Shown here piece by piece: positions 8,940 to 54,714 of a stretch of 64,000 nucleotides of DNA. The DNA is from Psammoneis japonica (Eukaryota): assembly GCA_008632985.1 (NCBI GenBank), contig QPGO01000087.1, positions 62,001-126,000 of the forward strand, given 5' to 3'. The notes beneath the pieces are model-generated. The model did not search any database. It saw nothing but the letters and a program-made list of their open reading frames with translations, and had not been told where the DNA came from. A program made the position numbers and the translations under genes. Within the stretch, counting starts at the first letter, position 1; each line of letters opens with the position of its first letter.

Positions 8940-9704
8940 TCTAAAAGCAAAATCACAATAGTAAGAGTTCAGATGGTGTGAATGCTCTCGCTTCTCTGTC
9001 AACAAGAGTGATAATGATTTAAGTTGTCGAAACTTTTCTTTTTGAAAAATGACCGTAAAAGAAAGGGAAAGAAAGGCATGCATGCAGGCGGGCAGAGTCT
9101 CAAAAATTGCGAGCCGCGTGTCATCATGTCGCAGGAATGACCGTCGCGGGGCGTCTGACGCGGGAATCAAAAAGATCAACTTCCACGTGGCATTATCATG
9201 CATGTGTTTGTGTGGTCGGTTTCGCTGTTCTGTGTTGGTTCTTTCACTCGTTGTGTGTGTCTGGCCCTGGCCACCAACACTGCACAAAGCTTCTTTTCCT
9301 TGTTCTGTGTGCCAGCAGTGTGACACACAGAAAAGGAACGCTGGTTAGAGACCAGATCAAAGTGGAGACTGGCAGACTGTTGGAGCGGGTGTGGCCTCAG
9401 ATTTTTTGCATGGCCAGGCATTTTCACATTTGCCCAATGCAGAAAGACCAGGGTTCAAAGTTTCCTTGAGATGGCCAACACTCTAACAAACAAGGCAGCA
9501 ATCCATGGCCAGGTTGAGAGAGCAACAATGTGGGCTGTCCACATCTCTCAAAGACCCCCTCTCTCTCCCCCTCCTGAGCATGAGAGAGACAACAGCGTGC
9601 CAGCTGGGTGATGTGTTGTGTGTGCCTTAGATGCTCGCTCAAAGCACAGCACATGGAGAATCAAGGACACAAGGCATGAGAGCTGGCCCTGATCAGCTGT
9701 GCAG

Positions 9705-10300
9705 CATGTGGTGACATGTCAATGCAGGTGATGTGCTCCAGGTGATTCAATGAATGAGACGCAAAAGTGCCCACTGAGCAAGCGAGATGGCAAAGCCTCT
9801 TTGCCAGCAACCATTCAGGCTGCATGACAGCCTCTCATCTGTTCATGGAGCTTGCACTTTGGGCAGGATGCATGAAATGGTGAGATGCCTGCATGTCTTC
9901 CTGACACAGCAAGTGCAAGAAGAGATCTGAGCAGCTGAAAGCTCCCACTGACAGTGAAGTCAAAAGAGGTCAAAGGTTCCAAATTCAAAAAGAGATTTTC
10001 TGTCTGACTTGGCAATCAGGGATCTCAGAGGAGTTGTCATGACCTGGGAATGAGGAGGATCGAAGAACTCTGATTCGATCTCTGTTGAACAAAGAACATT
10101 GAAGTCACTGGCTGGCAAGGACGAGGATGTCACATGTGGCAACATGTCAACGCAGGCAATGCACTCCAGGTGATTCAATGAATGAGACATGCAAGTGCCC
10201 ACTGAGCAAGTGAGATGACAAAAAGGCTTGCCAGCAACCATCAGGCAGCATGACGCATCTCATCTGTCTGTTTGTGGAGCTCGCACTTTGGGCGGGACAC
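9705..10300 (+). repeat. Diverged direct repeat of about 165 bp (about 9705-9870 and 10133-10300)
   Basis: Shared core ctccaggtgattcaatgaatgagac...aagtgcccactgagcaag...gcactttgggc. Confidence 0.8.
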
Positions 10301-10423
10301 ATGACACAGCTGATCCTTCTGTTTGAGGGTCATTTGCAAAAAACATGTTCACAAGCTCTGGAGACAAGAACCTCAGCTGCCACCTGTCTCCTCACTTTCT
10401 TTTGTACAAGACAAACAGCAGCT

Positions 10424-12074
10424 TGGCAGGTTGGCTGGTCAATTGCACCAAAAACACCCAATGATGACATTTTAAGGATTGGCTCCTGTCACCCTCACCA
10501 GCAGGACCACCAGCACATTAAGACCTCCAGGTCACTGTCCACGAAAGACACTGTGTGGGATGATGCAAACACAAATGCACAAAATGATTTAAGTCTGCCA
10601 GTGTGATGCTCTGCTGAACACACTGAAATCCATCTTCATTCACAGACCCTTCCACCACCGCTGCAAATCACCGTGTTGTCGACAAGAACGAACTTTGCGT
10701 TGCCACCGCTGAATGCACAATGAGAGCCAAATGTTCTGATGCCACAGATTGACAGATGTCACTGTGAATTGACTGTGTCTGATGCCAGAAGCTTTGGTTG
10801 GTTGCAATCCGAATGACATTGAACCAAAGAAAAACACACCGGCTCCAACAACAATGCCAATGCAACGCCAAACCAACATGAACAAGTGCAAACAGAAAGA
10901 AACAGAATGAACGTGCATTCATGTGTTTTACACAGCAATTGCAACAACACGCTCACACCTTTTTTGCAATGCTGCTGCTCTTTGTTCTTTCAGAAGCCAA
11001 AGAGAAAATGACATCCGGAAGAGCTGCAGTGTCCTTTGGGAGCAGTTGAAACAAAGTGAGAAAAGAAACAGAATGAATGAGTGTTCCCACATTTCACGCA
11101 GCAATTCCAACAACACACTTGCACCTTTTTCCCCCAATGATGCTTCTCTTTGTCCTTCCAAAGTTTCAAAGAGAAAAAAAAAACCATTGCTGTCCACACA
11201 AGCTGTTGTGTCCTTTGGGAGCAGATGCAGAAAAGAAACAGAATGAATGAGCATTCACATGTTTCGTGCATCAATTCTAATGACACGCTCACACCTTTTT
11301 TGCCAACACTGCTGCTGTTTGTTCTTCCAAAGCTTCAAAGAGAAGCAAAGCCATCGACTTGGAGATCCCAAACCATGAATGCCACAGCCAACAGAGTGAG
11401 CTGTAAGACCACGCCGGAGCATCTCCATGTCCCATGAATGATGCCATTCCATGTTGAGTCAGCAACTTCATTTTTTGAATTGAGCTCGTACAGTTGTCAT
11501 TTTCATCAGCCATCCAACAACACACTTTGTTGGATCAATGAAGACAGCACCTTCAATTGCCAATGCTGCAACATCATGTGCAGAGATGGTCTGAAAAACA
11601 ACATGAACGGCCTTTGGCAAGAGATGTGGACACAGAAATGTGCAGCGGCCTTAAAATGACACTTGCCAAGTGAATGTTCTCTCACAATCATTCTGCACAT
11701 GCTGCTTTTACCTTGTGCTGCTTTTGGTTCATTGCCACTTTCATGATGCAATGAGCGATGAGCGATGAGCGAGATTTGTTGGATCATTTGCTTGTCTGCC
11801 TGCAGTGCTGCACGTAGAAACCACACTGGCTTCACCCAAGTGATGTCATGGTGATCTCACAATGATCTCACACTGCTGCAAAAAAGGACAACAAACATCC
11901 GCATCACTGAAGGTGGTGCAAATCCATTTGAAAGTTCAGGTCAGGTCTCCTCAACAAGATGATCTCAAATCCGGTCTCAAATGGATTTGCACCACCTTTG
12001 GTCATGAAGTTAAATGTGTGTGCACCCATCTCTAAAAATGTCGCATTTGGTGCAATTGACCAGCCAACCTGCCA
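10424..12074. mobile_element. Putative non-autonomous DNA transposon of about 1.65 kb with terminal inverted repeats
   Basis: tggcaggttggctggtcaattgcaccaaa at 10424 is the reverse complement of tttggtgcaattgaccagccaacctgcca ending at 12074. No recognisable transposase. Confidence 0.65.
10891..11345 (+). repeat. Tandem repeat of about 170 bp, roughly 2.7 copies
   Basis: Recurring aaagaaacagaatgaa...caccttttt...gtgtcctttgggagcag. Confidence 0.8.
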
Positions 12075-13247
12075 CTTTTCCCACAGTGAAAGTGGCTCAT
12101 TTTGACTCACACATGTTGACTCACCAATCTCAAAGAGAGTTGTCCTCCCCACTCTTCACATGATCTTGGCTGTTGAGGTCATCAAAGCAATGGTTTCTTT
12201 GTGTGACTTGGCAGCAATCGTGTGTGCTGGTGGCAGCTTCTACAGTTTTGACTTGGTGCACCCATCATCAGGATCTTGCTTTTTTTGTCTGACCTGCAGC
12301 CACATGACAGCTTGTTTTTGGCGTGCAGCACCACATCTGCTCCTTGGCTCTGCAAAGCATGCCACATGTCCAATGCAAGAATCTTGCCTGCCAGAGAGCA
12401 AAACACAGAAACAAGAGGACAGCAGGCTTTCATCATTTTTGTCGCAGTGACAGTGAAGCCATTTGTTTCTGCTTGCTCAGGCAGAAAAGAGCTCTCAAAC
12501 AAATGACTGCACTTGTTCCCACCATGTTGAAGGGCAGGGTTGTGGCACTGGACAATTGGAAAAGAGGAGAGGATCGCTGGAGTTTGCCCCCACAATCTTG
12601 ACCTGTTTTGTGTGAGGCTGGACCCACACTCAAGAGCACTTGAAAGATCTCATTTTGGTCCCAGCCCACAGAGGCAGCCACTGTCACATCAGTGCAGCAG
12701 CAAATGAGAATGATGGGGATGAGCAATGATCCTTCACAACATCTGATGAATCAGAGGAAAGTTGGATGAAGGATCGGTGTTGGCTGCTGAGCTTGGAAAA
12801 AGAAAGGGTTGCTCCAGTCTGTGTCAAGAGAGGGCTCTTGACCCTTTCTGGTTTCCATGATTTGTTCCTGAAAGCTCAAAATTGCAGAGTGGGTGGTGAT
12901 CTTGTTTCCGCCACCACAGAAGAGTTGCACATGGAACACTTCTTCAAATCTCCCCCCCCTGTCCTTTGCATGATGAGTCAGTGTTGGCTTTGAAGAACGT
13001 TGTTGCTCACCTTGCTTGTTCACCACACAGCAGCACTTGGTCAGGGGCAAACATCAAATGGCACAATGACAACATGCAGAATGCACTCGTGTTGAGCATG
13101 AGACAAGCCAGTTGCAGCTGGCAAGGCAATTGAAGCTGGAGCCACTCTTTTTCATTGAGAGAATCCAGGCCACGAGTGACGATGGTGATTGCCCCTCTTT
13201 TTCATTCTATGATGACATTGCTTGTTTGTCACTTGAACAACTTCATC

Positions 13248-13531
13248 TTGTCCGTGCAACTTCTGGTTTGCACAGGGACAGATTCCTTGGATGCTTCGTG
13301 ATGGACATCTCCCTCATGGCACACACACCCAAGGGCAAGTCAAGAAAACTGCATTGTCAAGCAGAGCACAAAAGCTGCCCAGGTCACACTTCTGTTTGTC
13401 TGATGCTGCATGGACAGCAGCAAACATTGTGCCAATGTAAAGGAGGGCAGTGGCCAGCAGAACAGTTGACAGTCACCTTCCATGATTTGGTGCCATGAAA
13501 GAGCGGCACCAGAATCAGGTTGAAGCGGAGC
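13248..13531 (-). pseudogene. Hypermutated, internally deleted copy of the NIPA-like gene at 25258-26560; 3' flank homology extends to about 12500
   Basis: 13250-13320 aligns to 25240-25310, 13322-13531 aligns to 26088-26296, and about 12500-13170 aligns to about 24500-25205. Confidence 0.9.
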
Positions 13532-13956
13532 TCTCACCTCATTTGTTGTCTGTGCCGCTGTCATGTCACCATGACAATGGCAAAGGACTGAGACAATGAG
13601 AGTGTTGTTTTTACATTCTTTTATCATTTACGAGTCGCATTAAAAATGGGATTGATGCACACAGGGCTCAAAATTCGATTCAAAATTCAAAACATCACAT
13701 TACAACGGCGAGAAACAAAATAGTCGCGCTCTCTAGCTAGCGGTCACAGAAGCTCTAAGTATTATCAAGAAACGTTCGCACCAGTAATTAACGACTATGG
13801 AGCATAAAATATATTAGTGTCATTATAACTCCCAATCTAACCATCTCCAAATCGCCAACAACTCGCTTCGCCAAACAGCCAAACATCCACACCATACAGT
13901 GAGAACACCGAGAATCATCAATCATCACACTTTTTTGGTCGTAAACTTCATCAACA

Positions 13957-15219
13957 ATGGCTTTCGTTAAAGTCGTCGATGAAAATTATCCACCAGCTCC
14001 AGTGTTGCTGCTTTCGAAAAGCATAGATGTGATCTGCGGCAGCGCAAATTTTTTTCACTGCCAAAACTGGCGTGATTTGCTTCCGTCTCAGCTGTTGGAA
14101 GTCAGTGGACTGTCTTACAGAGTCGGCGATCTTTCAGAGACTTTTCCTGACACGCTCTCGTATGTGATTTTTTTGGAATCAACTGGTGCGGAGCACTCGC
14201 TCGGTAGCGTATGGAAATATGCCTTTGAGACGCCATCAACCGATTTATCGGTGGTTACAACCCCGCTCGCAATGATGGTGCTATTGTTTCTTGTGTTGCT
14301 ATTACGGGCAATTAAGGGTGTCCTTCTGCCTTACTTCTCGAGGCATGGTCGCCGAGTGGGTCGTGATACGCATGGATTGGATTGGGAGAAGAAAAACGAG
14401 GATCGCATCGTCAAGTTCGGTGAATACAGTTTTCGTCTCTTGTTCCACACGGTCATGAGTGTGGTTGGGATCTGGTATTTTTGGGACAAGGAGTGGTTGG
14501 ATGCGACCCGTGGAGGAACCAAGAACTTATTCGATAACTACCCGCTTGATAGCATTGATGTAGGGATGACTTGGTATTATTTGGTCCAATGTGCTTACAA
14601 TTTGGACGCACTTGTTTCACTCTTGGAACTTAGCTTTTCGGTCGAAAGGAAGTACCCTTTCAGTTCTGGTGGCACCTTTTCAAGTCCTGTGAGCATTGGT
14701 TGGTCCAAGACAGTTCGAGGGGACTTTCGAGAAATGGCGATTCATCATGTACTGACAAATCTATTGGTGATTGGTAGCTCTCACTTCCGTTTAACAAGGA
14801 TTGGATCATTGGTTTTTTTGGTTCATGATATCAGCGATGTATCTGTTGATCTTAGCAAACTTGCTAACTTCATGAAATGGATGAAATGCACCATTGTTGC
14901 ATTCACCAGCACCGTACTTTCATGGCTCACCCTTCGATTGGGCGTTTTCCCATTTGTTATCATCAAGTCGCTTTCCCGGGAAAGTTGGACTACGACAAAG
15001 AATTTTGACGCCAGCTGTTATCATTGTTACCTCCCATTTTTCCTTTGTTTCTGCCAGCTCCTAGCCTTTTTACATCTCTTTTGGTTCTTCACACTTCTGA
15101 AGATAGGTTGGCTCTTGTTGACCAAGGGCGAACGTCATGACTTGACTGAACATAAGAACGGGGAGACCACTCAAGATGCCGAACCACATTCTTTTGCCAA
15201 GAAGCAAGCGTCAAGCTAA
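13957..15219 (+). CDS. Ceramide synthase (LAG1/TLC family), copy 1
   Basis: KFGEYSFR, YYLVQCAY, Lag1 motif RGDFREMAIHH...RIGSLVFLVHDISD, and HLFWF. Confidence 0.9.
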   Translation: MAFVKVVDENYPPAPVLLLSKSIDVICGSANFFHCQNWRDLLPSQLLEVSGLSYRVGDLSETFPDTLSYVIFLESTGAEHSLGSVWKYAFETPSTDLSVVTTPLAMMVLLFLVLLLRAIKGVLLPYFSRHGRRVGRDTHGLDWEKKNEDRIVKFGEYSFRLLFHTVMSVVGIWYFWDKEWLDATRGGTKNLFDNYPLDSIDVGMTWYYLVQCAYNLDALVSLLELSFSVERKYPFSSGGTFSSPVSIGWSKTVRGDFREMAIHHVLTNLLVIGSSHFRLTRIGSLVFLVHDISDVSVDLSKLANFMKWMKCTIVAFTSTVLSWLTLRLGVFPFVIIKSLSRESWTTTKNFDASCYHCYLPFFLCFCQLLAFLHLFWFFTLLKIGWLLLTKGERHDLTEHKNGETTQDAEPHSFAKKQASS

Positions 15220-18200
15220 ATCGCAGGCACACATGATGCCTGTGCAATGCAGCGCATTTTGAGCAAGACTAATTGTGCCGACCGATTGCCAACAAGTCTT
15301 GGTTAAGATTACCTTTAGTTAAGAATGGAGATTAGAGAGTTTCAATTGTCGCTTAGAGCACTGGCAGCTTCAAAAGCTTTGAAGAATTGGCACACACCTA
15401 CTGCCACCACATCAGAGGGGGGGGGGGGGGGGGCAAATTAGCTGGTGCTCAATTGAATCATGCAGGTCAAACCTAGATTTTGCCTGCAGGTCGAACCTGC
15501 AGTGCAATGTGTGTCCCGGTTCATTTTAATTTGGGTTTGCCACATGCACCGGTGCGCTAAATTGACCATGCAGCCATGCCATTGTTCATGCAGCTGAGCA
15601 TGTCATTTCTGGTCTTCACATCACATGAATGGTTTTGATGCAACCCCGTTGTGCAGTGCACTCTTGTTTCATTTGTTGATTGCTGTTCGCACCCCTTTCC
15701 ACACTGGCAATTGGTTGTTTCTTGTCTCATCTTTCATTGTAAATCATTGCCAACAGCAGAGTGACCACACTGTCATCTGCAATGCTTCTGCACACCACAG
15801 CTGCTCTTCATTGATGTCACCATTGTCCTTCATTGTCATCTCATTGCCCACTGTGTCCATTGTGGCTCCCAGGCTGTCAAAGCATTCCCAGAATTCCTTG
15901 GACCACACTTCATTGAATTGCTCTGCACCCTTGCTCATTCTCTTCTTGTGTGCATGTCTTCTTCCCCAACTCTCAGCACCTGTTGAGTCCTTGTTTGTTC
16001 TAACCTTGGTTCCTTCTTGCTTGTTTTCCTTTTTCAGCACTGCACTTTGAGGCAGGAATGAGTCTCTTGTCCTGGAGCTCTTCCTTGGTTTCCCAATGGA
16101 TGTGTGCCCACCTGCCCCAATTGTTTTCTGATGCCAACAGACCAAATGCCTCTTCGCTTGCGAACACCAGCTTGCTCAAACAATGTCACATGGTCTTTCC
16201 AATGACGATGGGTGTGAAATGGTGGGTGCAGCATCTGCGAGCCTTCGTGCCATTCCTCCTCTCCAGCATTTCTTCCAAGGATGGCATCTGCTCCTTGTCA
16301 TGATCCAGCTGACCTGATTGTTCATGAGGTGCAACAAGGCAATGCAAGTTGGTGTTTTTTTTGTCAATGCTCTGCACTTCCTCTTGCAATGACATTTGCG
16401 GAAGAATTCCTTTTTTGGCTCTCCACAGGCATGGCTCCGCTTTTTTCTTTTTTTTGTCACACCTTGTCCTTTGGCATGTCCCACGTCCATGCCCTGTTGA
16501 CTTGTGGCATGTTGATCTCAGACAAAACAATCCTTGCCACCCTTTTCTTGTGGCCCCTTGCAGCCTTTTTGTTCAGAAACTTGTGCTGATGGAAAAGTGT
16601 GTTCTTGCTGCAGTTTTCCAAAACAATCTTGCCCCTGTCACCCACTCATGTTGTTGTTGAATCATTTTTTCTTTCATTTGTCACTCATTGCATTCAGCCC
16701 TTCATTTGCAATGGAGGTGGTGAGAGTCCTGTTTGTCACAACCCCTCCATTTGTTCCCTGGTGCTCTGCCATTGATGCGGGTGCATCTGTTTCTGTTTCT
16801 TGTGCTCTCCCTGTTGTGCCTGCTTGTTTCACAATCCACTGCACTGTCAGCTGGTTCAATTCAAGCAGTGTGAGCAGCTTGCACTTTGTTGCTTGCCTCT
16901 TTTCTCTCATTGGGCTTTGGGGTGGTTGGTTTTGCCATGCAGTTTGTCTTGGCAGCATGGCACTGTTTGCATTTTTTCTGGTTTCTGGAGAAGCAAGACT
17001 TTTGTTGTTCTGGGATGCATTGCAGTCACAGCACTGCCATGTGCTGCATTTGTTTGCAGATGCAACTGACAACCTTGCACTGGAACCTGCTGTCTTGTGT
17101 GTCCCTTCTGCAATTTTCAAATCTGTTGTGCATTGTGATTGGTCAATTGTTTTGAAACCAAAACACCAACACACATGCACACATGATGCAACATCCATTC
17201 AAACATGATGTCTGTCATTCATTTGCTCATGACTCCACCTTGCCACCGCATGTCACTGCACTCTTTTTCTGCACATGAGGCTGTGCAGTTTGTCCAACAT
17301 GTGGCAACAAATCATCTCCCAATTTGTTCCACTGGGCCTGCTGTTGCACACCTCTGGCTGGTGCATTCTTCTGTGGTGCACCACAATGTTGTCTTCCATT
17401 TTGTTGTCCAGGTTGGAGAGGCACCTGTCCAACTTTTGCCAGTCACATTGTCATGGTGTTGTGGCCATTTTGGTGATGGGGAATGTGCAACAGACAACCA
17501 TCCTTCTGTCACATTCAAGGAGCTTCCCATGGTGTTGGACAAAGCTGAGTTCAAGAAACATTTCAGAGTCATCTGCTTGCTTCTGTTGCATCTTTGCTCC
17601 ATTCTCACAAGAGCAGCACAACCATCATGGACAAATTCAACTAGGACAAAGCACCTGATTTAACATGTTTTTGGATGTCAACACTGACGTGCTCAGCCCA
17701 GACAATGCTGGTTCATCCATGGATTCATTGACACACTTTTCTTGCAAAATGACAGCACATCTCCTGCTCTTCATTGTTGTTGTGGGCTCTGCCTTGCAAC
17801 ATTCAATTGTCCACAGCAGCAGTCCTTTCCTCCCCTGATGCATCTGTTGTCAGGAAGTCACCATTGATCAACCCCCCAGAGTGCAACAAATCACTGTGGC
17901 AAAGGGAAGCTCTGAACAAGAACTGCCTGCACAAGAGGGGTGTTGGCAACCTTTTGCATCATGGATTGGACTGCAGTGTGCAATCATGCCAAAACAACAG
18001 AGTGCTGCAATGAAGCTTCCTTTTTTGTGGGACAGCTGCGTGCTGTTCATTCAAAGCAACCAAAAATGGGAAGTGGAAAAACCCATTGTCGTGGACAATG
18101 CAAAGTTGGACATGGTCCATGACACACAATTGGATGCATCCATCAACACTGGTTCAAGGGGGCTGCCATCAGCTTGTTGGGTGTGGATTGCTTGTCCTTG

Positions 18201-19277
18201 CATGACACTCAGCGGAGCTGTTGAAATTAACCAAGAAGAGTGTGGGTGGAACAGATGAAAAAAAAACTTTCTGCAAAAGGAAAGAAAGCAGACAAAAAGT
18301 CCAAGAAAAGCCAAGTCCATTTTGGGAACAGGAACAATCCAAGGTTGAGTGGTCTTGTTGTTCACACTCCCAGAAACATGGACATGCACAGGTTTTGCTC
18401 AGTGAAGCTGATCCAAAAGTGTTCAGAAAGCAAGGACAAGGACATGACAGAGTCCACCCATGTCATCATTGAGCATTTGGGTGAGTCAATGCCAACACCC
18501 TCTGCAAGATCTGGTGTTTGCATGTGAAGAGCTGACACAGAGTGGCAGAGGAAGTGGCAGAAAACCACCAGAAATCTTCGCAGAAGGGCAAAGGAGTTGC
18601 CAAATGGAGACCAAGCATTGTGCTCTGCTGTGGATGACATGCTGCACAGCACCCTCATGGTTGGAAGTGGCTGCAGGGGTGGGTTGCCGAAATTCATGTC
18701 AACAGCTGCATTGCTTCCATGCAATGGAGAGGTTTGGCAGACTTCTGTTGCAACCTCGCTGGTGACAATGCAAACATTGTCCTTCTTGTGTGTGTGTTCC
18801 AGTTGCAAGTGGCATGTTGCAACCCATCTAAATTTTGCAATGGGCAAAAACCACAAGTTCCTTTCATGCTGGATTGTTTTGTCATGGAGCAGCTCATGTG
18901 GGGACTTGCCCAACTCATTTGAATGACTTGTTCAACCGTGCAAGTGAAATGACAAAATTGCTTGTGCCAAAGCCAGAGTGGACATGTGAGTGTGACAATG
19001 ACAGTGGTTGTCTTTTCATTGCTTGGTGCACCAAGCAAAACTTGCCAATGGTGCATGCAGAACCTCTCATCTCTTTGTGGTGAAGATTGGAAATGGACCC
19101 AATGACCCAATGAGTGTTGGTTCAGACAAGGATTGGTTCAATCTTCATGAAAAGTTGGATGAGATGGAACCAATTCATGATTTTGGTGAGATGTCAAAAA
19201 TTGTGTAAACAGAAAAGAGATGATCCCAACAACAATGGAACAGTGCTGAAAAAAAAACAGATGCTGTCACCACAGCA

Positions 19278-19867
19278 GTTGGAATGCTTCGCCAGTTGCA
19301 AAACCAGAAGGGATCAAACTCTGCTGGGGTGGTGGATCCCTGAGCTTGGGACAAAAACACATTGTCGTTGTTGCCTGAGTCACTCGGCTCCATTTGGTGG
19401 TCATTTGTCTTGTCCTTGTCCTGTGCAGAGAGTGGGAAATCAATTTGTTCCACAGGGACAAGGCCACCATTGCTTGTTCTTTCATTGCAGCACAAAAAAT
19501 CAAGAGTGGGTCTGACCAGCATTCCATTGCCAGTGCTCCAGTCCTGCTCCCATGGTGGCAGCTGGCTGAGTTGGAATGCTGCCAGTTACAAAACTAGAAG
19601 GCATCAAACTCTGCTGGCAGTGGATCCCTGAGCTTGGGACAAAAACACATTGTCGTCATTGCCTGGGTCACTTGGCCCCATTTGGCGGTCATTTGTCTTG
19701 TCCTTGTCCTGTGCAGAGGGTGGGAAATCAATTGGTTCCATGGAGACAAGGCTGCCATTGCCTGTTCCTTCATTGCAGCACAAAAAATCAAGAGTGGGTC
19801 TGACCAGCATTCCATTGCCGGTGCTCCAGTCCCCAGTCCCCACTCCCATGGTGGCAGCTGGCTGACT
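19278..19867 (+). repeat. Tandem duplication of about 290 bp
   Basis: tggatccctgagcttgggacaaaaacacattgtcgt...cagcacaaaaaatcaagagtgggtctgaccagcattccattgcc...cccatggtggcagctggctga occurs twice in tandem. Confidence 0.9.
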
Positions 19868-22800
19868 TGGTTCTTCCAAAGCATTGTTCAACAAATGATG
19901 TGCTGGTGGCCCACACACACAATTTGGTTTTCTGGCATCATTCAGGGTGCCATTCAATGCCCTGGTGGATGAGATGACAATGTTCTTGTGACACTTCATT
20001 GAAGAGAGAACATCCTGAGCAGCACACTTTTGCTTCAAATGTGACAACAGAACCTTTGTGATGAAACGATTTTTGCAGACGAGAGTGTTTGTGTCATCAG
20101 CATTGTCTGCACCAGCCTGCTGGCCACTGTTTTCAGGTGCAGTGGGCACCTCAGCAAGGTTTTGCAGGTTGTCAATCAAATCATCACAGTGACCCGGGAA
20201 CACACCAGTGAGGAGAAACTTGACACAGATCAACTGTGTGAGTGCCTGTGGCACAGCACTGTTCATGACATGGCGCACAGTTCACCCAGCATTCTTGTCA
20301 CAGATGGTGGCACAGCTCTGGTCAAGGTCACACATTGGTGTTCAAGTGTGATGCAGGCAGACAGCAGCCACAAAAGACACAGGAAAAACTCCACCCACAA
20401 AGATGGAGCCAATCTTCCAAAGTGTGGCAGGTTTTGCAGAGACGGGCTGCATCACAACAACAAGCCACAGCTTTGTGTTCTTCATCCACAAATTTGACAC
20501 CAGTGTCACAAACAAGTTCAGAGGAGTGCACTGACCCATTGAAGACAGATCACAGAAGAAATGCTGTCACAAAGTTGGGAAAAGAACCTTCACAGAGGAG
20601 CAGCACCTCAACAACAACAACAATGTCACCTTCAACATCTGGATGGGCAGTGTGCACATGGCTGTGTTGGTTGAAGATGCTGTCCAGGGCAGCTGAAAAC
20701 AAGGCACTGCTGGCCTTTGGCAGGAGAATGTGATCAATTTGGGATCAAAAATGAGCTGCAAATGCGTTTCAACAGACAACACCATGGGGCCTGCCTTCTC
20801 CCAAAACTTTGCATGAATGGAAGGAGCGTTGCAACAACCAGTCTTCTTGTCTGTGAAAACACATTCCTCAGACATCATTGCAAAGGGAGACTCAGAGTTT
20901 ACACCAGCATCAAGGAGTGATTGGAAATTCATGGTGTTCCCTGTCTCTTGTTTTGATGGAAAACCAAGAAAAAAGAAGGGCTTGACCAACCTTTGAGCTC
21001 CCCACTGTTTTCACAAGGTTGGACTCCAAATTGTTCATTTTGCTGACATGAGGACACGTTTTTCTGAGCTTTCTGGAGAGATGCTGTCATGGTGCTGGCG
21101 GCAGTGATTTTTCCCCCTTGTTGGCATTGCACTTGCTTGGCAAAAGGTTGCAGAGCTTTTCCTGTTGGTTTCTGCACAGGCCATGCATCCACCAGTGAAA
21201 CAACAACAGCCACATTTTGCAATCCTTGTGGGACAAGTTGTTTGGGTCAAGAGCGTGCATTTTGCTTGGATGCTTCTAGCAACTCAGCATCCTTGAAGGA
21301 AGGAACTTTGTCACAATGCATGAGAAATTTGAGACATTTGGGTGGAAGAATGGCCAGAGAGAATGCAAGCAATCTGCCACATTGGCAGCAGTGGCAGCTT
21401 TGTTGTTGATGGAGGCAGCAGTGACAGCAGCTGCTGGGTTGTTGGCAGGTGCTGTGGTGGCAGTGGCTGGTTGTTGGCAAGGGCTGATCCTGAGTGGCTG
21501 CATGAGAGGCCAAGCTTGAGAGGCAAAGTTTGAGATTGGCCACCCTTGCCTTTGCCACCATGGCCATGACCACCGGCATTGGAATGGTTGGCACCACAAC
21601 TGCCTGCATCTCCATGAGAGTTCTTGTCCTTGCAGCACACCATTGTGATGATGCACCAAAAAGCAAATTTGGTTGTGAGGGCATCAACTGGTTGGGAAGA
21701 TTGAAAAGATGGCACCTGAAGTCCCAGAACAATTGAAAGAAGATGGAGCAAGCCAGCATGACTATGAAAATTTCCATCTCAACAAGAACACATTGATGTG
21801 ACAAAAAATGAGACATTGACCTGCTGCGGACACAAATGCAATGAATCTCACTCAAGCAGTCCTTCACACACAGCTGTGAATTGCATGACATCTTGTGAAT
21901 CAAAAATGTTAAATTGGTGCAAAACCTCAACAACTTGACAATTCATTCAAGTCATTTCAAATTGTTCAAACCTTCAAAAGTGAGTGTGAACATGGAATTT
22001 TGAAACAAAAATGCCATTTGCAAAGCAACACAGACAGCAATCACCAGGCAGACATGCTCAACATTGCCACAAAAAGAAATCACCATTGCCTCACAAGACA
22101 CAAAATACAACACACAGGACTCATCCAACATCTTGACAACAATGACAGTGTGGGAAGGCAGTGGCAGAGCAGAGTGCAGGCACAATCCGAGGAAGAAAAT
22201 GTGGGCACAAGGTGAGAGAGAGAGGAAGTTGCAAACTGTTGACTCTCCTGCCAATCTTTCCACTCAGACACATTGACATGCAAGAGGAGCCAGAAGGGAA
22301 GAAGATGATGCTGGGATGCCACAAAAGTGAGCAGAAGCACCATGTGCACCAAGCTGATTAAAAAAAAGCACATGCAAAACTCTGATCTGTTGCACACTCT
22401 TTTCTCTTCTTGCAGCCAATGATTTGGCCACCCGAACATGACAAACAAAAGAGAGGTCACAATGTAGAGTGAATGGCGATCATGGAGAGCAGTTGTGAGG
22501 GACAACACCATGACTGCAACAGGATTCCATCATTGTGCAGACAGCCAAGGGCAATGGGAGCACTGGTGGAAGATGTGGCAAAATGATGGGGAAGAAAGAG
22601 CAGGAAACAGGAAGCAAAGAAAGCAGATTCAGTGCAGAAAAAATGAATTGCAACAGGTGCAAATCAAATTGCACATGTGCAGCACCACACAGCCAACACA
22701 CAAGCACATCAATGAGATGAATGAATGTTGTTGTTGTTGTCAGCAATGAGCAGTGTTGGAAATTTGTTGCAATTGTGCGGTTGTTCAGAAGAATCAATTG

Positions 22801-22999
22801 CAAGCCACAAGTTTTGTTCATTGTCATTTCCTGCTTTGCTGAGGATGACATTTGTTGCAAACAGAAATTGAGTCATGTCAAAACAATTCTTAATGTGCAC
22901 ACAGATTGTCTTGTCAAGATGACATGCATTGCAGGGCCAACTGACATTGAGCATCACCTCCTGCTTTGCTGATCACATCAATTGTGAGTGGCCCTGCAA

Positions 23000-24070
23000 T
23001 CGCAATGAATTGGCCCTTGCCAAGCAGACAGCATTTTGATCTGGTGCAGATGAATTCTGAGCAAGAGCAACAACATTTTTCAGACAAGAAAGCTGTTGAG
23101 GGTCTGGCAAAAGAGGGTGGGACAAGGTTGTGTGGGGCTGGGACAATGTGGGTGACAACACAACTGAGTGCAGAAGCCTCAAAGATTGAATGGGTGCATG
23201 ACACCATTGACAAGTCGGGATGACAGGCAGATGGCTGCACGCAAAGAACCACAAGGAAGATTGGCAAGCATGTCAGAAGAATGTTTGGCCCGGAGATGCA
23301 GCTGCTGGTGTCCCTGAGGCAGGAGAGCACACCAAAAGAGCCAGAGCATCCATCGGGAGACACTGCATTAGAGAAGGACAAGGCAATCTGGGGCAAGCAA
23401 TGTGATCACTGTGCAAAACATAGTGTGATCTACAAGATGCAGAAGGCAAAGGTGTTTGGTGAAAATGTGGGACAGTGCACAAACATGCCATTCATCACAA
23501 GGTTGAAGGAGTGACAGAGTTCACAAGAGTTGCAAAGGAGTGGAATGTGGTGGCACTGTTGGAAATTCTCAAAGACCTTGTTTGATGCAAATGAGAAGAT
23601 GTGCTGCTTGCATGTTCAGGTGGTCAAGGCTTGGAAGCGCTTGGTGCTCATTCATCAAGATGAAGGAGAGTGACTTCAAGATTGTTGTGATTGGTTCATT
23701 GGTGTTGTTGAGATGGTGGAAGGGTCCTGCGGCAGGATCATCCTGGAAGGAATTGCCAAGAAAGCAGACAGGTTCAGCTGGGATGCTGATGACACCCAGA
23801 AGAAAGAAAAGAACAAGTTGTCAGTGGTGTTGCCAATGGAAGGTGCCAAGGAATGTTGGCATGTCTTAAAAGGCCTGGATCAACAGTTTGCACTGGGGGC
23901 TGACAATTGCCCCAATTCAGCCAAGGAGGCATTGCAGGTGTTGAACATGCATGGTGCCAATGAGAAACCTGAGAGGGTGCAAGTTTTGCACAAAATGAGA
24001 AGAAGCAGATCAAATGCTGGAAATGTGGAAGGCTGGGCATGTGAAAAAGGATTGTGCTTTGCTCAATGAT
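23000..24070 (+). mobile_element. Degenerate Ty1/Copia (diatom CoDi-like) gag relic
   Basis: Fragments EKDKAIWGKQCDHC..KAKVFG..GQC and LDQQFALGADNCP.SAKEALQVL resemble diatom Copia gag (W.KQYD.Y; G.DNYP) with Tyr replaced by Cys. Recognised from memory, not from a search. Confidence 0.6.
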
Positions 24071-25257
24071 GACAACAATGATCATTGCAATTGGAGTTGA
24101 GTGATGCAGGCCACAGGATTTGGTGTGGCAGTTGAAGTGGTGTTTGGCATGGTTTCCAAGTGTCATGCTCCTGTGCTTGGTGCATGTGAGGTCAATCTGT
24201 GGATGGCTTGCATGAAGGAGTGTGTTGGAACATTGGGGTGAGAGGCAGATTTCAAATAACAGACAGACAACAATGCAGTGTGCAAGATGTGTGGATGGCT
24301 CTCTGGGTGATGTGGTGAATTTCTGCTTGCAACTCAGGTTGAGTTGCATGTCTTGTGCTCACTTTTTAGCTTCTGCACCCACAGTCAACATGACAACAGT
24401 GGTCAACAACATTGGGAATGTGTTTGCAAGCCATGTGGTGAGTTTGGGGTTGGCATGACACCAAGTGTCTGTCAGTCGGCAAGCCATGAAACTCCAACAC
24501 CACTTGCTCCCAAATTTAAAGGTGGGCTGCAGCATGAGACAAGTGGAAAAGAGGAGGAATGCTTGAGTTGGCATTGTGATCTTGACAAGCTTTGTGGAAG
24601 ACTGGACTGGCACAAGCATTTGAAAGACCCTGCTTTTGTCCCAGCCCACAGGGGGGCCCACATGATCAATGTGGCTGAAACTGAGAGCAGTGTGCAAACA
24701 ATGGAAATGACAGAGATCAGGGAACATTTGCAACATCTCACAAGTCAGAGAAACACCTGTGTCAGTGAAGGCTTGCCAGGTGACAGCAAACAATGTCCCC
24801 ACCCACAACTTGAAGAATTGACATTGGCTGCTGAGCTTGGACAATGAAGGGATTCTAGCCTCTGTGTTTTTTAAACAGATTGGCCCTTTCTGCTTTCCAT
24901 GATTTATTCCTGAAGGCTCAAAAAGCCCTGAATGGGTGGTGATCTTGTGGCCACCACCATCCTGCAATGGCAGAGTTCTTGCACAGAGGACCCTTCAAAT
25001 CTCCCCCCCTTGTCCTTCACATTAGTCTGTGATTCCTTTGAAGGACGTTGTCACTCATCATTCTTCACCAAAAAACAGCGCTTGATCGGGCAAACATCAA
25101 ATGGCACAATGATGACTTGCAGAATGCACTAATGTTGAGTACAATAAGCTTATCGTAGCAAGGCAATGGAACCTGGAACTGTTCTATTTTAATTGAGAGA
25201 ATCTAAACCAGGAGTTCGTCACATGAACGACTTCAACTCATCCGTGTAACTTCTGGT

Positions 25258-26560
25258 TTACGCAGCGACGGATGCCTTGGTCGCTCGGTGACGGATCTCT
25301 CCCTCATGGTAGTCTTCGTGGGGATCGGTTGCCCCACCGAATGCCGTCGTCGTATCATGGCACTCCTCCAACAATAAGTCATCACTCCCTGCGGAGGCGG
25401 CGGCGAGGTCCGGAGGCAAGAGCTCGTCGTAAGAAACACGAACACCACTTTTCCATGTTGCCTTTTCTATTTGCTCGGGGCTTGGACTGCCGGATTTGAC
25501 GCTCACTGTCATATTCCCCGGGGCGGCTGTTTCGTCATTGATGCCATCCATATTCTGCTGCCGGCTTCTTTCATTAACGAGCATCGCGATTCCGGCAAGG
25601 GCCGTGATAAGTCCGAATGAATAAGATACGGCATCCGCAGGTAGGTTCATTTGCCGGTACTCTCCAAAGTAAAGCATGCCACCGGCAATGTTCAAACCGT
25701 TCAAGAAAGTTTGGTAGATAGGAACGGCTATCAACGCCTCATACCCGGCGAGGGCCTTGTTGAGGTACCCTACCTGCGTAAGCACACAACATACCGTCCC
25801 CGTCAAGAAGAAACAAGGCAACAAGCTGAATTCTCCCGTCGATGGGTAGTGCAGCAATCTGTTCAGAAATGCAAATGTGCCTCCTCCGTTATTATTTCCG
25901 TCCACGATCGCGTTCTTGATGAGTTCTGATAGGCTCTTGGCGCACAAGACGCTTTGACCACCGAAACAACCTGCCAACCCACAAAAGTCGACGACACCGT
26001 ACTTGTCATGCCCACCGTTAGTTCCGCCAAGTCTACCTTTTCTTCTTCGCTGTTTTGTCCTTTTGTACAGAAATGTTTGAAACACTATACACACCCCAAG
26101 GTAAGTCAAGAAGACTGCGTTGGTAAGCAGGGCGTAAAAGCTGTCTAGGTCATACTTCTGTTCGTCTGACGCCGCGTGGACAGCAGCAAAGATTGTGCCG
26201 ACGTAAATGAGGGCGGTAGCCAGCAGCACATTGACAGTCACCTTCTCTGATTTGGTGCCGTGAAAGAGCGGCGCCAGTACCAGGTTGAAGCCGAGCGAGA
26301 GAGATCCAAGGGGTCCCAGCAGAGACTGTGGCGCCAATCCTATCAATACAAAGTCACCACAAGCGTCTAATACCAAAATCGTCATCCCCAACACCCACAG
26401 CGGCTGCCTGTGAGGAGGGCGAGGTTTGTTCGCGGATTCTTTCTTCTTGGCCGCTACATGGTTCTTCCTCGCGCCCCATGCTGAACTTTTGCAGGTTGAC
26501 GCCGACGGCCCCCATGAATGACAGAGTCACGCTCCACGTTACCGCTAACCAAACTCTCAT
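25258..26560 (-). CDS. NIPA-family Mg2+ transporter (DMT superfamily); one frameshift near 26460
   Basis: N-terminal GAVGVNLQK, then in the other frame RQPLWVLG..GDF....APQSLLGPLGSLSL.FN, QVGYLNKAL, VPIYQT, GGMLYFGEY. Confidence 0.85.
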
Positions 26561-27328: not shown

Positions 27329-28579
27329 ATGGCTTTCGTTACAGTCGTCGATGAAAATTATCCACCAGCTCCAGTGTTGCTGCTATCGAAAAGTATAGAT
27401 GTATTCTGCGGCAGCGCAAATTTTTTTCACTGCCAAAACTGGCGTGACTTGCTTCCGTCTCAGCTGTTGGAAGTCAGTGGACTGTCTTACAGAGTCGGCG
27501 ATGTATCAGAGGCTATTCCTGACACGCTCTCGTATGTGAATTTTTTGGAATCAACTGGTGCGGAGCACTCGCTCGGTAGCGTATGGAATTATGCCTTTGA
27601 GACGCCCTCAACAGATTTGTCGGTGGTTACAACCCCGCTCGCAATGGTGGTGCTATTGTTTCTTGTGTTGCTATTAAGGGCAATTAAGGGTGTCCTGCTG
27701 CCTTACTTTTCGAGCCATGGTCGCCGAGTTGGTCGCCATACGCATGGAGTGGATTGGGAGAAGAAAAACGAGGACCGAATCGTCAAGTTTGGTGAATACA
27801 GTTTTCGTCTCTTGTTCCACACGGCCATGAGTGTGGTTGGGATCTGGTATTTTTGGGACAAGGAGTGGTTGGATGCGACCCGTGGAGGAACCAAGAACTT
27901 ATTCGATAACTACCCGCTCGATAGCACTGATGTAGGGATGACTTGGTATTATTTGATCCAGTGTACTTACAATTTGGACGCACTTGTTTCACTCGTGGAA
28001 CTTAGCTTTTCGGTCGAAATGAAGTACCCTTTCAGTTCTGGTGGCACCTTTTCAAGTCCTGTGAGCATTGGTTGGTCCAAGACAGTTCGAGGTGACTTTC
28101 GAGAAATGGCGATTCATCATTTACTGACGAATCTATTGGTGATTGGTAGCTCCCACTTCCATTTCACAAGGATTGGATCCTTGGTTTTTTTAGTTCATGA
28201 TATCAGCGATGTATCTGTCGATCTTTGCAAACTTGCCAACTTCTTGAAATGGAAAATATGCACCATTGTTGCATTCACCAGCACCTTACTCTCATGGCTC
28301 ACCCTTCGATTGGGCGTTTTCCCATTTGTCATAATCAAGTCGATTGCCCGGGAAAGTTGGATGACGACAAAGAATTTTGACGCCAGCTGTTATCATTGTT
28401 ACCTCCCGTTCTTTCTTTGTTTCTGCCAGCTCCTGGCCTTGTTACATCTCTTTTGGTTCTTCACACTACTGAAGATCGGTTGGCTCTTGGTGACCAAGGG
28501 CGAACGTCATGACCTGACAGAGCATAAGAACGGGGAGACGACTCGAGACTCCGAACCACATTCTTTTTCCAAGAAGTAA
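27329..28579 (+). CDS. Ceramide synthase (LAG1/TLC family), copy 2
   Basis: Near-identical paralog of 13957-15219 with an intact Lag1 motif (HH...HDISD). Confidence 0.9.
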   Translation: MAFVTVVDENYPPAPVLLLSKSIDVFCGSANFFHCQNWRDLLPSQLLEVSGLSYRVGDVSEAIPDTLSYVNFLESTGAEHSLGSVWNYAFETPSTDLSVVTTPLAMVVLLFLVLLLRAIKGVLLPYFSSHGRRVGRHTHGVDWEKKNEDRIVKFGEYSFRLLFHTAMSVVGIWYFWDKEWLDATRGGTKNLFDNYPLDSTDVGMTWYYLIQCTYNLDALVSLVELSFSVEMKYPFSSGGTFSSPVSIGWSKTVRGDFREMAIHHLLTNLLVIGSSHFHFTRIGSLVFLVHDISDVSVDLCKLANFLKWKICTIVAFTSTLLSWLTLRLGVFPFVIIKSIARESWMTTKNFDASCYHCYLPFFLCFCQLLALLHLFWFFTLLKIGWLLVTKGERHDLTEHKNGETTRDSEPHSFSKK

Positions 28580-28779
28580 ATGTCAAGGTAAATTGCTGGC
28601 ATTCATGATGCCTGTGCAATGCGGCGCAGTTGGAGTACGACTACTAAAGATAGCCTTAAGTTAAGAATGGACATTAAAGAATTTCCTTCTTTTTCAACAA
28701 CATTGAAGGGAACTATCACAAGTCATGCCTTGCCGATGCATTGAAGTCGGTCGAAAAGATTAGCACAAAGTATCGGTCG

Positions 28780-29571: not shown

Positions 29572-29969
29572 GATGACGTTCCTACAGCCCAGCAACAAGA
29601 CGACGACGAAGCTCTTGACCGAAAGAAAAAGACAACAACACCAGTGATGGTTGGATGTACAATACACGAGTACAACGGCAGAAGAGAGAAGCAATAGCCA
29701 ATGCAAATACGGTAGCAAAAATAATAAAAAAAGCAAAAAAATGCGCGGTGTGCGGTGTGGCGCGGTATAATCAAATAATACAATGCTGGAGGAGTCGTCG
29801 TCGACCGCGGACCCGCGCTTTTTTGGTCGCACTTCCTTTCAGCACAGCACACAAGGGGGCAAATCTAGAGCCTACGATGTGTCGAAATGTGTGGCGTGGC
29901 GCGGACGTCAGATTTATTGAGTGGCTTGTTCTCGAAGATAATCGATGTTCAAAACAAAATAAATTCAAT

Positions 29970-39230: not shown

Positions 39231-39232
39231 AC

Positions 39233-39526
39233 CACAGGCTCAGAGCAAACCTGGGTGTAACACCTGGCTACCCCGCAAAAGAACTCTGGAAAACCAAATT
39301 TACGTAGAAGAAGTGCCAGGGACCCAGCAGAAATGCCAAACAAGTCCGGAATTTCGTGATTTTTTTGACAGCCCTGGTGCTGATTCTACGATGGATTCTA
39401 CGCAGTTTCTGGATGTTTATTCCGGACTTATTTGGCATTTCTACTGGGGCCCTGGTGCTCCTTCTACGTAAATTTGGTTTTCCGGAGTTCTTTTGCGGGG
39501 TAGCTGGGTTTAACTCTGAGCCTGTG
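39233..39526. mobile_element. MITE of 294 bp with long (about 110-120 bp) inverted arms and a 7-bp target-site duplication GTGGAAC
   Basis: cacaggctcagag...gtccggaat (39233-39352) pairs with attccggac...ctctgagcctgtg (39419-39526). gtggaac lies at 39226-39232 and 39527-39533. Confidence 0.85.
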
Positions 39527-53329: not shown

Positions 53330-54450
53330 GTAGTCTGCTCATCTGTTGGTGACAGTGGCGGTTGTTGCTGAACACAAAATTGTGCACAGCACATGCGGGC
53401 TGGCGCCGCACCCGGCACACAACAGCAGCTGTCTCTTTGTCCTTGTCCTCTCTGCAGCAGGCCCTGTCTGAGAATGACCAGTGTCAAATGGGAGGTCATC
53501 ATGTTCATCTCATGCCTGTTGTCATCAAACTGGCAGAGCCACCACCGTCATCTGCCACGGCTGCAGCAGAGCTGCAGGCATGCTGCCCGTCATGAGTCAA
53601 AGGAAAGGTTGAGCATGCCTTTCTTACAATGCCATCACAACATGTGAGTGTGTCAGCATGGTGGCAGCAGCACACAGACAGGTGACTCTCCCCACTCTTT
53701 TTGTTCATCAGATCATCCAAGCTTTGAAAGTGCATGGTTGTTTTCTGAATCACCAGGTGCAATGGTCTGAAAGAGTGGCTGGCAACCCAGGTGCAAGATG
53801 CGCCCATGGTGCAAGCAAGAAGACTGGCACTGGTTGGCATGTTTGGGCAGGGGTCCTGCACCTTTTCTTGTGGTTGCACTGGGGCATCATCCCAAGTTGG
53901 AAGTGGTGCCAACAAACAATGTTCTGTGATTGTGTGCTCAGCCCCAGCTCCTGCAAACACACTTCTCATCAAGACTTCACAGTGCACACATGGCAGCAAA
54001 AGAGAGATGGTTTGTGGCTGTGGAAAGACAAGGATTGGCAGAGTCTGTGAGGCTGGTGGGAGGACTGACATGTCTAAGCCCAACCTGCAGAAGACTCCAG
54101 TGACATCACACTCAGAATGCAGTGTCACTGCTTTGCCCAAGCCAGCACAACAAGTGTCTCCTTGCCTCCACAGAGCCAGAATCCACAGGAACTCAACCAC
54201 ACAGCATCACCTTCTGTCAAACTCTTGACCCAGGGGATTGGTGGTTCAAAGCTCCCAAGAAAGCCTCTGCTGATTGCCTTCTCAACACTCAACAACATGC
54301 CAAAAGTTTGCAGCAAGCAAGGAAGCCCTGCAACTGAGGAGGAAGCTGCAAAGCTGTGCAACACCTGCAAGACCAAGCCAATGGCAGATGTGGAGTGGCC
54401 TGTGCAGCTTCATCACAATTTTGTTCTTTGAAGCTTGATTTCAAAGTGGC
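53330..54450. repeat. CpG- and TpA-depleted degenerate block E
   Basis: Same signature, lying between RPB2 and the TatD-family gene. Confidence 0.7.
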
Positions 54451-54714
54451 AAAACAACATGCAAATGTCTTGCGCGTTTGAGTTCAATTGTGGATGCGGT
54501 GCTTCAATCAGCGGACAACAACAACGATCGAATTGTCACTTTGGCGCTGCAGCACTTGCTCACCCGCGCATTGAACGCATCACGAAGAAAGTCGCTCTTG
54601 TCTCTAAGCGAGTGAGCGCGGCATCAAAAGAACGAAAATCACAGAGGCAACTGTAAAAACCACAGAAAGCACTGTTTCATTTTTTGAGTGTTATATTATG
54701 CCTGTGTCACTCCG

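Follow-up and report, generated by a model that had tools for sequence, protein, structure and literature searches.

How does a dead copy of a host gene lose nearly all of its CG and TA dinucleotides when the intact parent, lying in the same stretch of DNA, keeps them? This question is raised by 64,000 nucleotides of the diatom Psammoneis japonica (GenBank assembly GCA_008632985.1, contig QPGO01000087.1, positions 62,001 to 126,000 of the forward strand), here called the window and numbered from its first base. An initial annotation, made from the letters of the window, had aligned an intact NIPA gene by hand with a shorter relative and described the latter as a pseudogene in which CG and TA had turned into CA and TG. 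Self-BLAST of the window showed that this pseudogene belongs to a segmental duplication wider than had been described, with copy A at 12510-15343 and copy B at 24501-28685 in direct orientation. Copy B carries the intact NIPA-family gene and a gene with a TLC domain, and copy A holds an intact paralogue of the TLC gene together with two remaining fragments of NIPA (Table 1). The larger fragment is 84.7% identical to 26089-26296 of the parent, with one 1-nt gap, and the smaller is 80.4% identical to 25218-25309. At the junction of the two fragments the copy has 3 bases where the parent has 779 bp (25310-26088), in agreement with the deletion of about 780 bp estimated earlier. On the other side of the larger fragment, 1017 bp of the parent (26297-27313), comprising the 5' part of NIPA and the shared promoter, are replaced in copy A by 410 unrelated bases.

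The copy carries this deletion, lacks the 5' part, has gained a 1-nt insertion and shows replacements at six residues on which all 12 orthologs agree; it is thus a defunct piece of a host gene, as the initial annotation had proposed. Homology that continues into the flanks and the neighbouring gene, together with these disabling lesions, classifies it as an unprocessed (duplicative) pseudogene; a processed pseudogene was rejected, as the homology runs about 700 bp past the 3' end and the TLC gene was copied in the same order. The copy contains no TAA or TAG stops, which is uninformative because TA is nearly gone from it. Its 95-aa frame (13343-13627) has no Pfam match, and its NIPA origin rests on the DNA homology. 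The main open reading frame (ORF) of the parent, 25258-26394, matches Pfam PF05653 with 86.4 bits (cut-off 26.2), which places its product in the NIPA magnesium-transporter family, and 13 homologs were found for the protein, the best with an E-value of 1.6e-66. The parent is interrupted in the window at 26460. A Logan contig of a DNA sequencing run, X1, which is probably the source sample, carries 8 additional bases after this position; they bring the ATG at 26560 into frame with the main NIPA ORF with no intervening stop and restore the N-terminus seen in orthologs. The break is either an 8-bp assembly error or a broken allele.

The differences between parent and copy are concentrated at two dinucleotides. 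In the 209-bp block formed by the larger fragment, 12 of the 13 CG of the parent had changed in the copy (7 to CA, 4 to TG and 1 to GG), as had 7 of its 8 TA (5 to CA, 1 to TG and 1 to AA), and 17 of these 19 losses ended as CA or TG. The hand counts of about 11 of 13 CG and about 6 of 8 TA going to CA or TG were exact, and both of the example strings quoted with them are present in the parent-copy alignment. Other dinucleotides were rarely affected (CA 2/17, TG 1/15, AA 1/15). Counted per site, changes fell on 12 of 26 CG sites and 7 of 16 TA sites, and, in line with the few other changes noted before, on 12 of 166 remaining sites. These excesses are well beyond chance (Fisher p of 2.8e-6 for CG and 2.8e-4 for TA, each against the other sites), which provides the test of CG and TA rates against other contexts that had been proposed as a check. 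Transitions made up 23 of the 31 differences in the block, about 9 of them A:T>G:C. The 92-bp 3' block behaved in the same way, with 7 of 8 CG changed (5 to CA or TG) and both TA changed, both to CA or TG. No CA or TG of the parent had become TA in the copy within the aligned block, and no CG had become TA. The loss of CG and TA in the NIPA copy is thereby confirmed.

We then polarised these changes at the protein level against 12 orthologous proteins, 39-48% identical to the parent, of which that of Seminavis robusta is the only one named. The block corresponds to parent residues 33-102, where 26 codons differ between the two copies, 11 synonymously and 15 non-synonymously. At all six differing columns that are invariant in 12 of 12 orthologs (G35, A41, E50, I63, I68 and Y81) the parent retains the conserved residue and the copy is derived, and the same holds for Y98, which is conserved in 11 of 12. 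Among the derived changes of the copy are Tyr81 TAT>TGT and Tyr98 TAC>TGC, both TA>TG, and Ala41 GCG>GTG, a CG>TG change. The direction at all polarisable sites is therefore confirmed by these protein comparisons as running from the parent state to CA/TG, and an ancestral TG/CA state, the outcome that would have overturned the proposed direction, was found at no polarisable site among the 12 orthologs. This agreement is what makes us give almost no credence to the reverse history, in which the copy is ancestral and the parent gained CG and TA, or to its variant, a retrocopy of edited mRNA. RNA editing would indeed give the sense-strand pattern, in which 5 of 6 TA changes are TA>TG (A>G). However, about 700 bp of flank and the neighbouring gene were co-duplicated in the same order, which indicates DNA duplication, and the decay is also present in the flank, which does not belong to the transcript of the gene.

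Is duplication itself the trigger? The co-duplicated TLC genes serve as a control. Over 1330 bp (13942-15271 against 27314-28643) they are 93.5% identical, with a synonymous divergence (dS) of 0.159, a non-synonymous divergence (dN) of 0.036 and dN/dS of 0.23, and we found no CG/TA asymmetry between them (CG changed at 10/62 against 7/59, TA at 12/52 against 8/48). The spectrum of this pair is not rich in transitions (34 transitions, 40 transversions), and beside it the near-purely transitional decay of CG and TA stands out all the more. The parent NIPA gene likewise has normal composition and is unaffected. Divergence outside CG and TA was 12/166 in the pseudogene block and 62/358 in the flank, and these values, together with the dS of the TLC pair, fit one duplication event. 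Because the TLC pair and the parent NIPA gene were spared, duplication is not the trigger, and the process instead follows location in non-genic DNA. The initial claim that a host gene duplicate can be hit is thus partly supported: host-derived sequence is indeed affected, but the reason would be its dead state and its location in a silent domain, and not duplication.

The same control bears on repeat-induced point mutation (RIP), in which the cell would have recognised the duplication and mutated the copy. In its favour, it is a duplicate that was affected, most of the differences are transitions, and diatoms carry DNMT4 enzymes related to fungal RID (PMC9998398). Against this stand the sparing of both the 1.33-kb TLC pair and the parent, and the chemistry of the change, since TpA was destroyed, not created, and about 9 of 23 transitions run A:T>G:C. 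The enrichment in A+T that RIP would leave is not seen (G+C 0.478 in depleted DNA against 0.476 in normal DNA), and most depleted DNA has the same X1 word depth as genes, which is a hint only. We therefore regard a RIP-like process as very unlikely.

The pseudogene lies in a larger compartment of altered composition. A two-state hidden Markov model (HMM) on pyrimidine-purine (YR) dinucleotides, CG+TA against CA+TG, was run over 63,935 bp and assigned 23,538 bp to a depleted state, made up of eight main segments and a 157-bp stretch near the window end (63780-63936). CG+TA account for about 3.5% of YR dinucleotides in depleted DNA and for about 40% elsewhere, and observed/expected (o/e) values of CG and TA per kilobase are bimodal along the window. 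Pooled o/e ratios in depleted and normal DNA were 0.15 and 1.00 for CpG, 0.04 and 0.56 for TpA, and 1.85 and 1.18 for CpA/TpG, with depleted-to-normal ratios of 1.04 for AA and 0.88 for ApT indicating little change. Mononucleotide frequencies are equal within 0.001 (A or T, each, 0.261 depleted and 0.262 normal; G or C, each, 0.239 and 0.238); the CpG and TpA losses are opposite transitions that cancel, and therefore G+C does not fall. Every TpA context falls in depleted blocks, ATA and GTA most. CA is about as frequent as TG in all eight blocks, and a search for strand bias (CA versus TG) at block level found none, so that the process is strand-symmetric at block scale.

These compartments are sharply bounded and avoid genes. 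On leaving depleted DNA, at 12 boundaries, counts per 100 bp climb from 0.75 to 5.5 for CG and from 0.42 to 3.3 for TA inside one 100-bp bin. The domain of the pseudogene stops 345 bp short of the ATG of the TLC gene of copy A, at 13606/13612, and typically 120-350 bp of gene-adjacent DNA stays normal. All spacers in the window longer than about 1.4 kb are depleted in their core, except 43449-45835 and 48720-49930. Non-depleted non-coding spacers, 6.1 kb in all, have normal values (CG o/e 1.03, TA o/e 0.66), and the contrast is therefore not one of coding against non-coding DNA. Inside the depleted domains lie two islets of normal CG and TA content, 10659-10707 (49 bp) and 30938-31038 (101 bp), which may be recently inserted, protected or converted patches.

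Transposons are not demonstrable in the depleted blocks of this window, and the initial annotation's contrast with transposons finds no support here. None of 116 open frames of at least 90 aa, taken from all six frames of depleted DNA, matched a Pfam family above threshold, and none had a reverse transcriptase, integrase or transposase domain; an earlier Pfam scan of depleted-block frames for transposon domains gave 0/11. The only matches in these scans were two sub-threshold chance ones, to KfrB (18.4 bits) and WI12 (19.7 bits). TAA and TAG stops are missing from this DNA because TA is almost absent. Rfam gave 0 matches for RNA genes in the window and 0 tRNA were found, and Tandem Repeats Finder returned 0 rows at score 80, though BLAST shows diverged tandem copies.

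Repeats inside depleted DNA provide a second record of the same decay. An ancestral CG or TA that decays separately in two copies can leave CA in one and TG in the other, and among adjacent double differences CA<->TG ranked first in each of the five repeat pairs located in depleted DNA: 5 of 5 in the tandem pair 19277-19870, 6 of 11 in the pair 9705/10133, 10 of 20 in 10896/11062, 5 of 22 in the flank pair 12767/24811 and 4 of 17 in the flank pair 12510/24501. In the 1330-bp TLC pair, used as control, the count was 0 of 7. The doublets in the repeat pairs are thus independent evidence of the decay seen in the NIPA copy.

We next compared the window with the Logan contigs of run X1. The contigs matched depleted DNA with 0 differences over 1615 bases at 11969-13583 and 1 difference over 3489 bases at 15418-18906. 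X1 word depth is about 57-93 in most bins, in depleted and normal DNA alike, and about 70 at these two example stretches, as over genes. This reproduction of the depleted blocks (the library type of X1 is not on record) argues against an artefact in which a long-read assembly was miscalled or wrongly polished at modified bases. In favour of such an artefact, systematic A/G and C/T miscalls at modified bases are a known feature of nanopore data. Yet CG never became TA, the copy also carries indels, transversions and the 779-bp deletion, and CA<->TG doublets between repeats are evolutionary signals; we consider an artefact of this kind barely plausible. Window and X1 contigs showed 19 differences, and exchanges between CG/TA and CA/TG made up 6 of 10 in depleted DNA and 1 of 7 in normal DNA; in the islet 10659-10707 both differences were CG<->TG/CA. 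For random changes in depleted DNA our rough, uncomputed expectation is about a quarter. These counts give a weak hint that activity in depleted DNA is continuing. Bins with higher summed X1 depth lie at 10335-11668, 13003-13669, 20340-21006, 21674-22340 and 23008-25008, and several have many joints; they may be repeated in the genome. At 23008-25008 the summed word depth, which is not copy number, is 4-9x that of neighbouring bins, with a dozen joints that skip 78-346 bp; this stretch probably represents a family of repeats whose genomic copies vary in length.

The duplication also allows the decay to be dated and its rate to be estimated. Neutral divergence per lineage would be about 0.07-0.08, and the loss of 12 of 13 CG and 7 of 8 TA would correspond to about 2.6 and 2.1 events per dinucleotide. 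CG and TA would then decay at roughly 15x the overall per-site rate and 30x the rate of a single background transition, that is, about 15-35x background. With a forward/backward ratio of this size, CG+TA would be expected to settle at about 3.5% of YR dinucleotides, the value observed, and the composition fits a steady process. The time frame appears to be given by a dS of about 0.16, within which the dead fragment lost about 90% of its CG and TA. Selection that purges CG and TA from spacers as harmful, for instance as targets of a nuclease or a binding factor, would fit the extreme, bounded depletion and the retention of both dinucleotides in genes. To remove about 90% in this time, it would have to act strongly at each site of junk DNA. 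Moreover, the replacements are nearly all the single-transition neighbours CA and TG (17/19), as mutation bias predicts, and non-depleted spacers exist. Purging by selection is accordingly, in our view, highly improbable.

We consider it probable, if by no means certain, that the dead NIPA copy underwent, after segmental duplication, a domain-wide decay that is a by-product of chromatin state in a silenced compartment. This explanation starts from what the sequence shows: the duplication, the direction and context specificity of the changes, the compartments with their boundaries, and the sparing of genes. A segmental duplication copied the NIPA transporter gene and the neighbouring TLC-domain gene; the TLC copy stayed functional, and the NIPA copy, deprived of its 5' part and of 779 internal bases, is dead. 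The dead copy now lies in the non-genic DNA of a sharply bounded genome compartment, where the self-complementary CpG and TpA are both turned into CpA/TpG by transitions, C:G>T:A at CpG and A:T>G:C at TpA. The compartment may correspond to silenced, CpG-methylated DNA, and the loss of CpG may reflect deamination of 5-methylcytosine (5mC). Diatoms methylate CpG in repeats via DNMT5a (PMC9998398). Methylation-driven decay would account for the turnover of CpG to TpG/CpA in particular domains (11/13 in the pseudogene; o/e 0.15 against 1.00). It would leave other dinucleotides unaffected, and this was not what we found (TpA o/e 0.04; TA 7/8 changed).

The loss of TpA would then have to come from something confined to the same domains, for which several candidates can be named. 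One is a miscoding base modification, such as an oxidised thymine of the 5-hydroxymethyluracil (5hmU), 5-formyluracil or base J type, that could be read as C. Another is a modified or deaminated adenine, for example through a DNA adenine deaminase with a 5'-T preference. A third is error-prone or biased repair that, by analogy with very-short-patch repair, might be drawn by methyl-CpG damage and over-correct T:G to C:G. The decay as a whole would be a by-product of chromatin state and not a repeat-sensing defence. Two specific candidates were tried and rejected. Canonical N6-methyladenine (6mA; AMT1 pathway) is described in bioRxiv 10.1101/2024.10.28.620566 as marking ApT where active genes begin, at their 5' ends, and it does not appear to be mutagenic; here the affected context is TpA in non-genic DNA, with an ApT ratio of 0.88. 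Polymerase-eta mutagenesis at WA, which gives A>G at TA and AA, disagrees with the single change among 15 AA and the AA o/e ratio of 1.04.

A more specific possibility, which we hold only tentatively, is that a second symmetric, heritable mark or targeted activity acts on TpA and is co-extensive with CpG methylation in the silent domains of this diatom lineage. A TET/JBP-type enzyme that oxidises both 5-methylpyrimidines, or a DNA adenine deaminase, could be responsible, and miscoding would produce A:T>G:C at TpA at the speed with which deamination of 5mC produces C:G>T:A at CpG. If so, silent DNA would converge on a CA/TG-rich, stop-codon-poor sequence with no change in G+C, and the process would constitute a previously undescribed context-specific hypermutation and a new type of genome compartment.

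The identity of the domains and boundaries of the two losses also suits a dedicated mutator defence, in which one machine or coupled DNA deaminases (C>U at CpG, A>I at TpA) would act on silent or foreign DNA and the pseudogene would have been swept up. Both changes would be deaminations of amino bases, depletion is near saturation (TpA o/e 0.04) and the rates are similar (CG 12/13, TA 7/8). We nevertheless think such a defence unlikely. The window holds no deaminase gene or transposon remnant, the contexts lie on opposite sides of the target (C before G, A after T), which would be odd for a single enzyme, and the equilibrium-like composition suits slow, continuous decay equally well. Sequence alone cannot separate this defence from a by-product of chromatin state.

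Several points weigh against the explanation by chromatin-linked decay. That the domains are silenced and methylated is an inference. The polarisable sites are non-synonymous only, as the orthologs are 39-48% identical; this low protein identity makes polarisation of synonymous sites at the DNA level impossible, and most of the 17 changes from CG/TA to CA/TG would be assigned by parsimony and by the selection that acts on the parent. Since the HMM placed its boundaries on the summed CG and TA signal, the two steps coincide in part by construction. The RPB2 ORF starts about 118 bp from a depleted block, and promoters are thus not always widely cleared. As run X1 is probably the source sample, its agreement with the window is not independent confirmation. 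The placement of canonical eukaryotic 6mA at ApT, and the 5mC-only methylation of P. tricornutum given in the same preprint (bioRxiv 10.1101/2024.10.28.620566), weaken the modified-adenine option. The behaviour of AA removes the polymerase-eta route to TpA loss. Finally, a burst cannot be told from a steady process.

We also looked for the joint depletion in other diatoms. Around RPB2 relatives in 80 metagenome loci (678 kb) there was no comparable block, which is weak evidence as metagenome contigs under-sample repeat-rich DNA; the sole marginal candidate was 396 bp at a contig end in locus L023, with CG+TA at 10 of 94 YR dinucleotides. In 44 diatom-like loci (402 kb), none of 19 ORF-free stretches of at least 1 kb (28 kb) had joint CpG and TpA depletion, such DNA again being under-sampled. 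An ORF-free stretch of another diatom (locus L014, 2412-3655) has CpG o/e 0.18 and TpA o/e 0.75, a classical CpG-only decay; other diatoms therefore show decay of CpG that is not accompanied by loss of TpA, and the joint form seems to be specific to a lineage. Word searches of open-access text and bioRxiv yielded no report, for diatoms or any other organism, in which CpG and TpA are lost together to CpA/TpG, and a literature word search for hydroxymethyluracil in diatoms gave, among the papers listed, reports from dinoflagellates and other organisms only.

The pseudogene-parent pair shows that the odd composition of a third of the region arose in place, by mutation of host sequence, and did not come with foreign or transposon DNA; it further provides the estimates of rate (about 15-35x background) and time frame (dS about 0.16). 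Depleted DNA is full of long spurious ORFs that would mislead gene finders, and the HMM on CG+TA against CA+TG splits the genome into gene-containing and silent domains at a resolution below 100 bp. Diatoms are a major group of ocean primary producers, and a loss of TpA that is restricted to domains, runs by the opposite transition and equals that of CpG in strength and extent would point to a DNA modification, a deaminase or a repair bias new to them.

Table 1. Coordinates of the duplicated genes, pseudogene fragments and depleted domains in the window
Feature	Position	Strand	Remarks
NIPA pseudogene fragment	13323..13531	-	Parent residues 33-102; retains 2 CG and 1 TA; 1-nt insertion
NIPA pseudogene fragment	13228..13319	-	Last 16 codons of parent and 3' flank (25218-25309); joined to 13323..13531 across the 779-bp deletion
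Co-duplicated flank downstream of NIPA	12510..13177		Homologous to 24501-25215, 70-72% identity; both copies now depleted; 9 CA<->TG double differences
410 bp unrelated to parent's 26297-27313	13532..13941		Depleted domain ends inside, at 13606/13612
TLC-domain gene, copy A, intact	13957..15219	+	Normal-composition island 13612-15558 (1.95 kb) within depleted DNA
Parent NIPA-family gene (PF05653)	25258..26560	-	Two frames in the window (25258-26394, 26354-26560), split by 8-bp gap at 26460
TLC-domain gene, copy B (PF03798)	27329..28579	+	Partner of copy A; dS 0.159, dN/dS 0.23
Depleted domain	9252..10656		HMM; continuous with 10710..13606 but for the 49-bp islet
Depleted domain holding the pseudogene	10710..13606		HMM; 37 CG and 12 TA among 700 YR dinucleotides
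Largest depleted domain, 9.6 kb	15563..25127		HMM; 53 CG and 28 TA among 2316 YR dinucleotides; abuts 3' flank of parent NIPA
Depleted domain	29966..32802		HMM; segments 29966-30931 and 31041-32802 around the 101-bp islet
Depleted domain	36981..39256		HMM
Depleted domain	53416..54471		HMM; between RPB2 5' end and TatD gene 3' end
Depleted domain	57487..60940		HMM

Among the neighbouring genes, the RPB2 ORF (49930-53298, minus strand) is 76-88% identical to RPB2 of the diatoms Thalassiosira, Skeletonema, Discostella, Ditylum, Rhizosolenia, Corethron and Fistulifera, and no closer match turned up in the collection searched. The TLC-domain (ceramide-synthase-like) gene of copy B and an alkaline ceramidase gene (PF05875) stand tail to tail, 200 bp apart, within 27329-29832, a small pair of sphingolipid genes of which the TLC gene alone was duplicated. 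A flavocytochrome gene, with FAD_binding_2 and two cytochrome b5 domains, occupies 5076-7395 as the adjacent ORFs 6286-7395 and 5076-6233, which probably belong to a single gene interrupted by a short intron or by a break in the frame.

Known context-dependent decay of silenced DNA comprises that of CpG, through methylation, and, in fungi, RIP. RIP in Neurospora and other fungi, and RIP-like CpG hypermutation in some basidiomycetes, resemble the present case in producing context-dependent transitions in non-functional DNA and in being revealed by comparison of a pseudogene with its parent. Unlike the process in the window, RIP makes TpA from CpA, lowers G+C, needs repeats and hits both copies; here TpA is lost, G+C is unchanged, and the TLC copy and the parent are untouched.

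Three other systems offer parallels for the TpA component. In somatic hypermutation, AID deamination is followed by error-prone repair by polymerase eta at WA motifs, which produces A:T>G:C changes nearby, TA being the preferred WA motif. This two-phase process, and the mutagenesis of flanks by repair of deaminated methyl-CpG, differ from what we observed in that AA is unaffected here and TpA alone shows near-complete loss. In E. coli, CTAG is depleted because very-short-patch repair corrects T:G to C:G too often; the likeness is that a system for undoing 5mC deamination has, as a side effect, T>C at a word that contains TA. This repair is bacterial, specific to a motif (CTWGG) and genome-wide, whereas here every TpA context is affected, inside domains only. 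Thymine hydroxylation to 5hmU and base J by TET/JBP enzymes, as in kinetoplastids and dinoflagellates, favours T before A and would put the 5-methylpyrimidines of CpG and TpA under one enzyme class. To our knowledge, mutagenicity of the TpA-loss kind has not been described for it, and for this diatom it supplies only a candidate base and enzyme.

A close relative is the methylation-linked decay of CpG in vertebrates and in the methylated repeats of many eukaryotes, including diatoms. As there, CpG goes to TpG/CpA by transitions, the change is confined to domains, and genes or islands are spared. What sets the P. japonica window apart is a loss of TpA no less complete than that of CpG (o/e 0.04) and brought about by the reverse transition. 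The phenomenon as a whole would belong with context-dependent decay of silent DNA, and its TpA component is potentially new.

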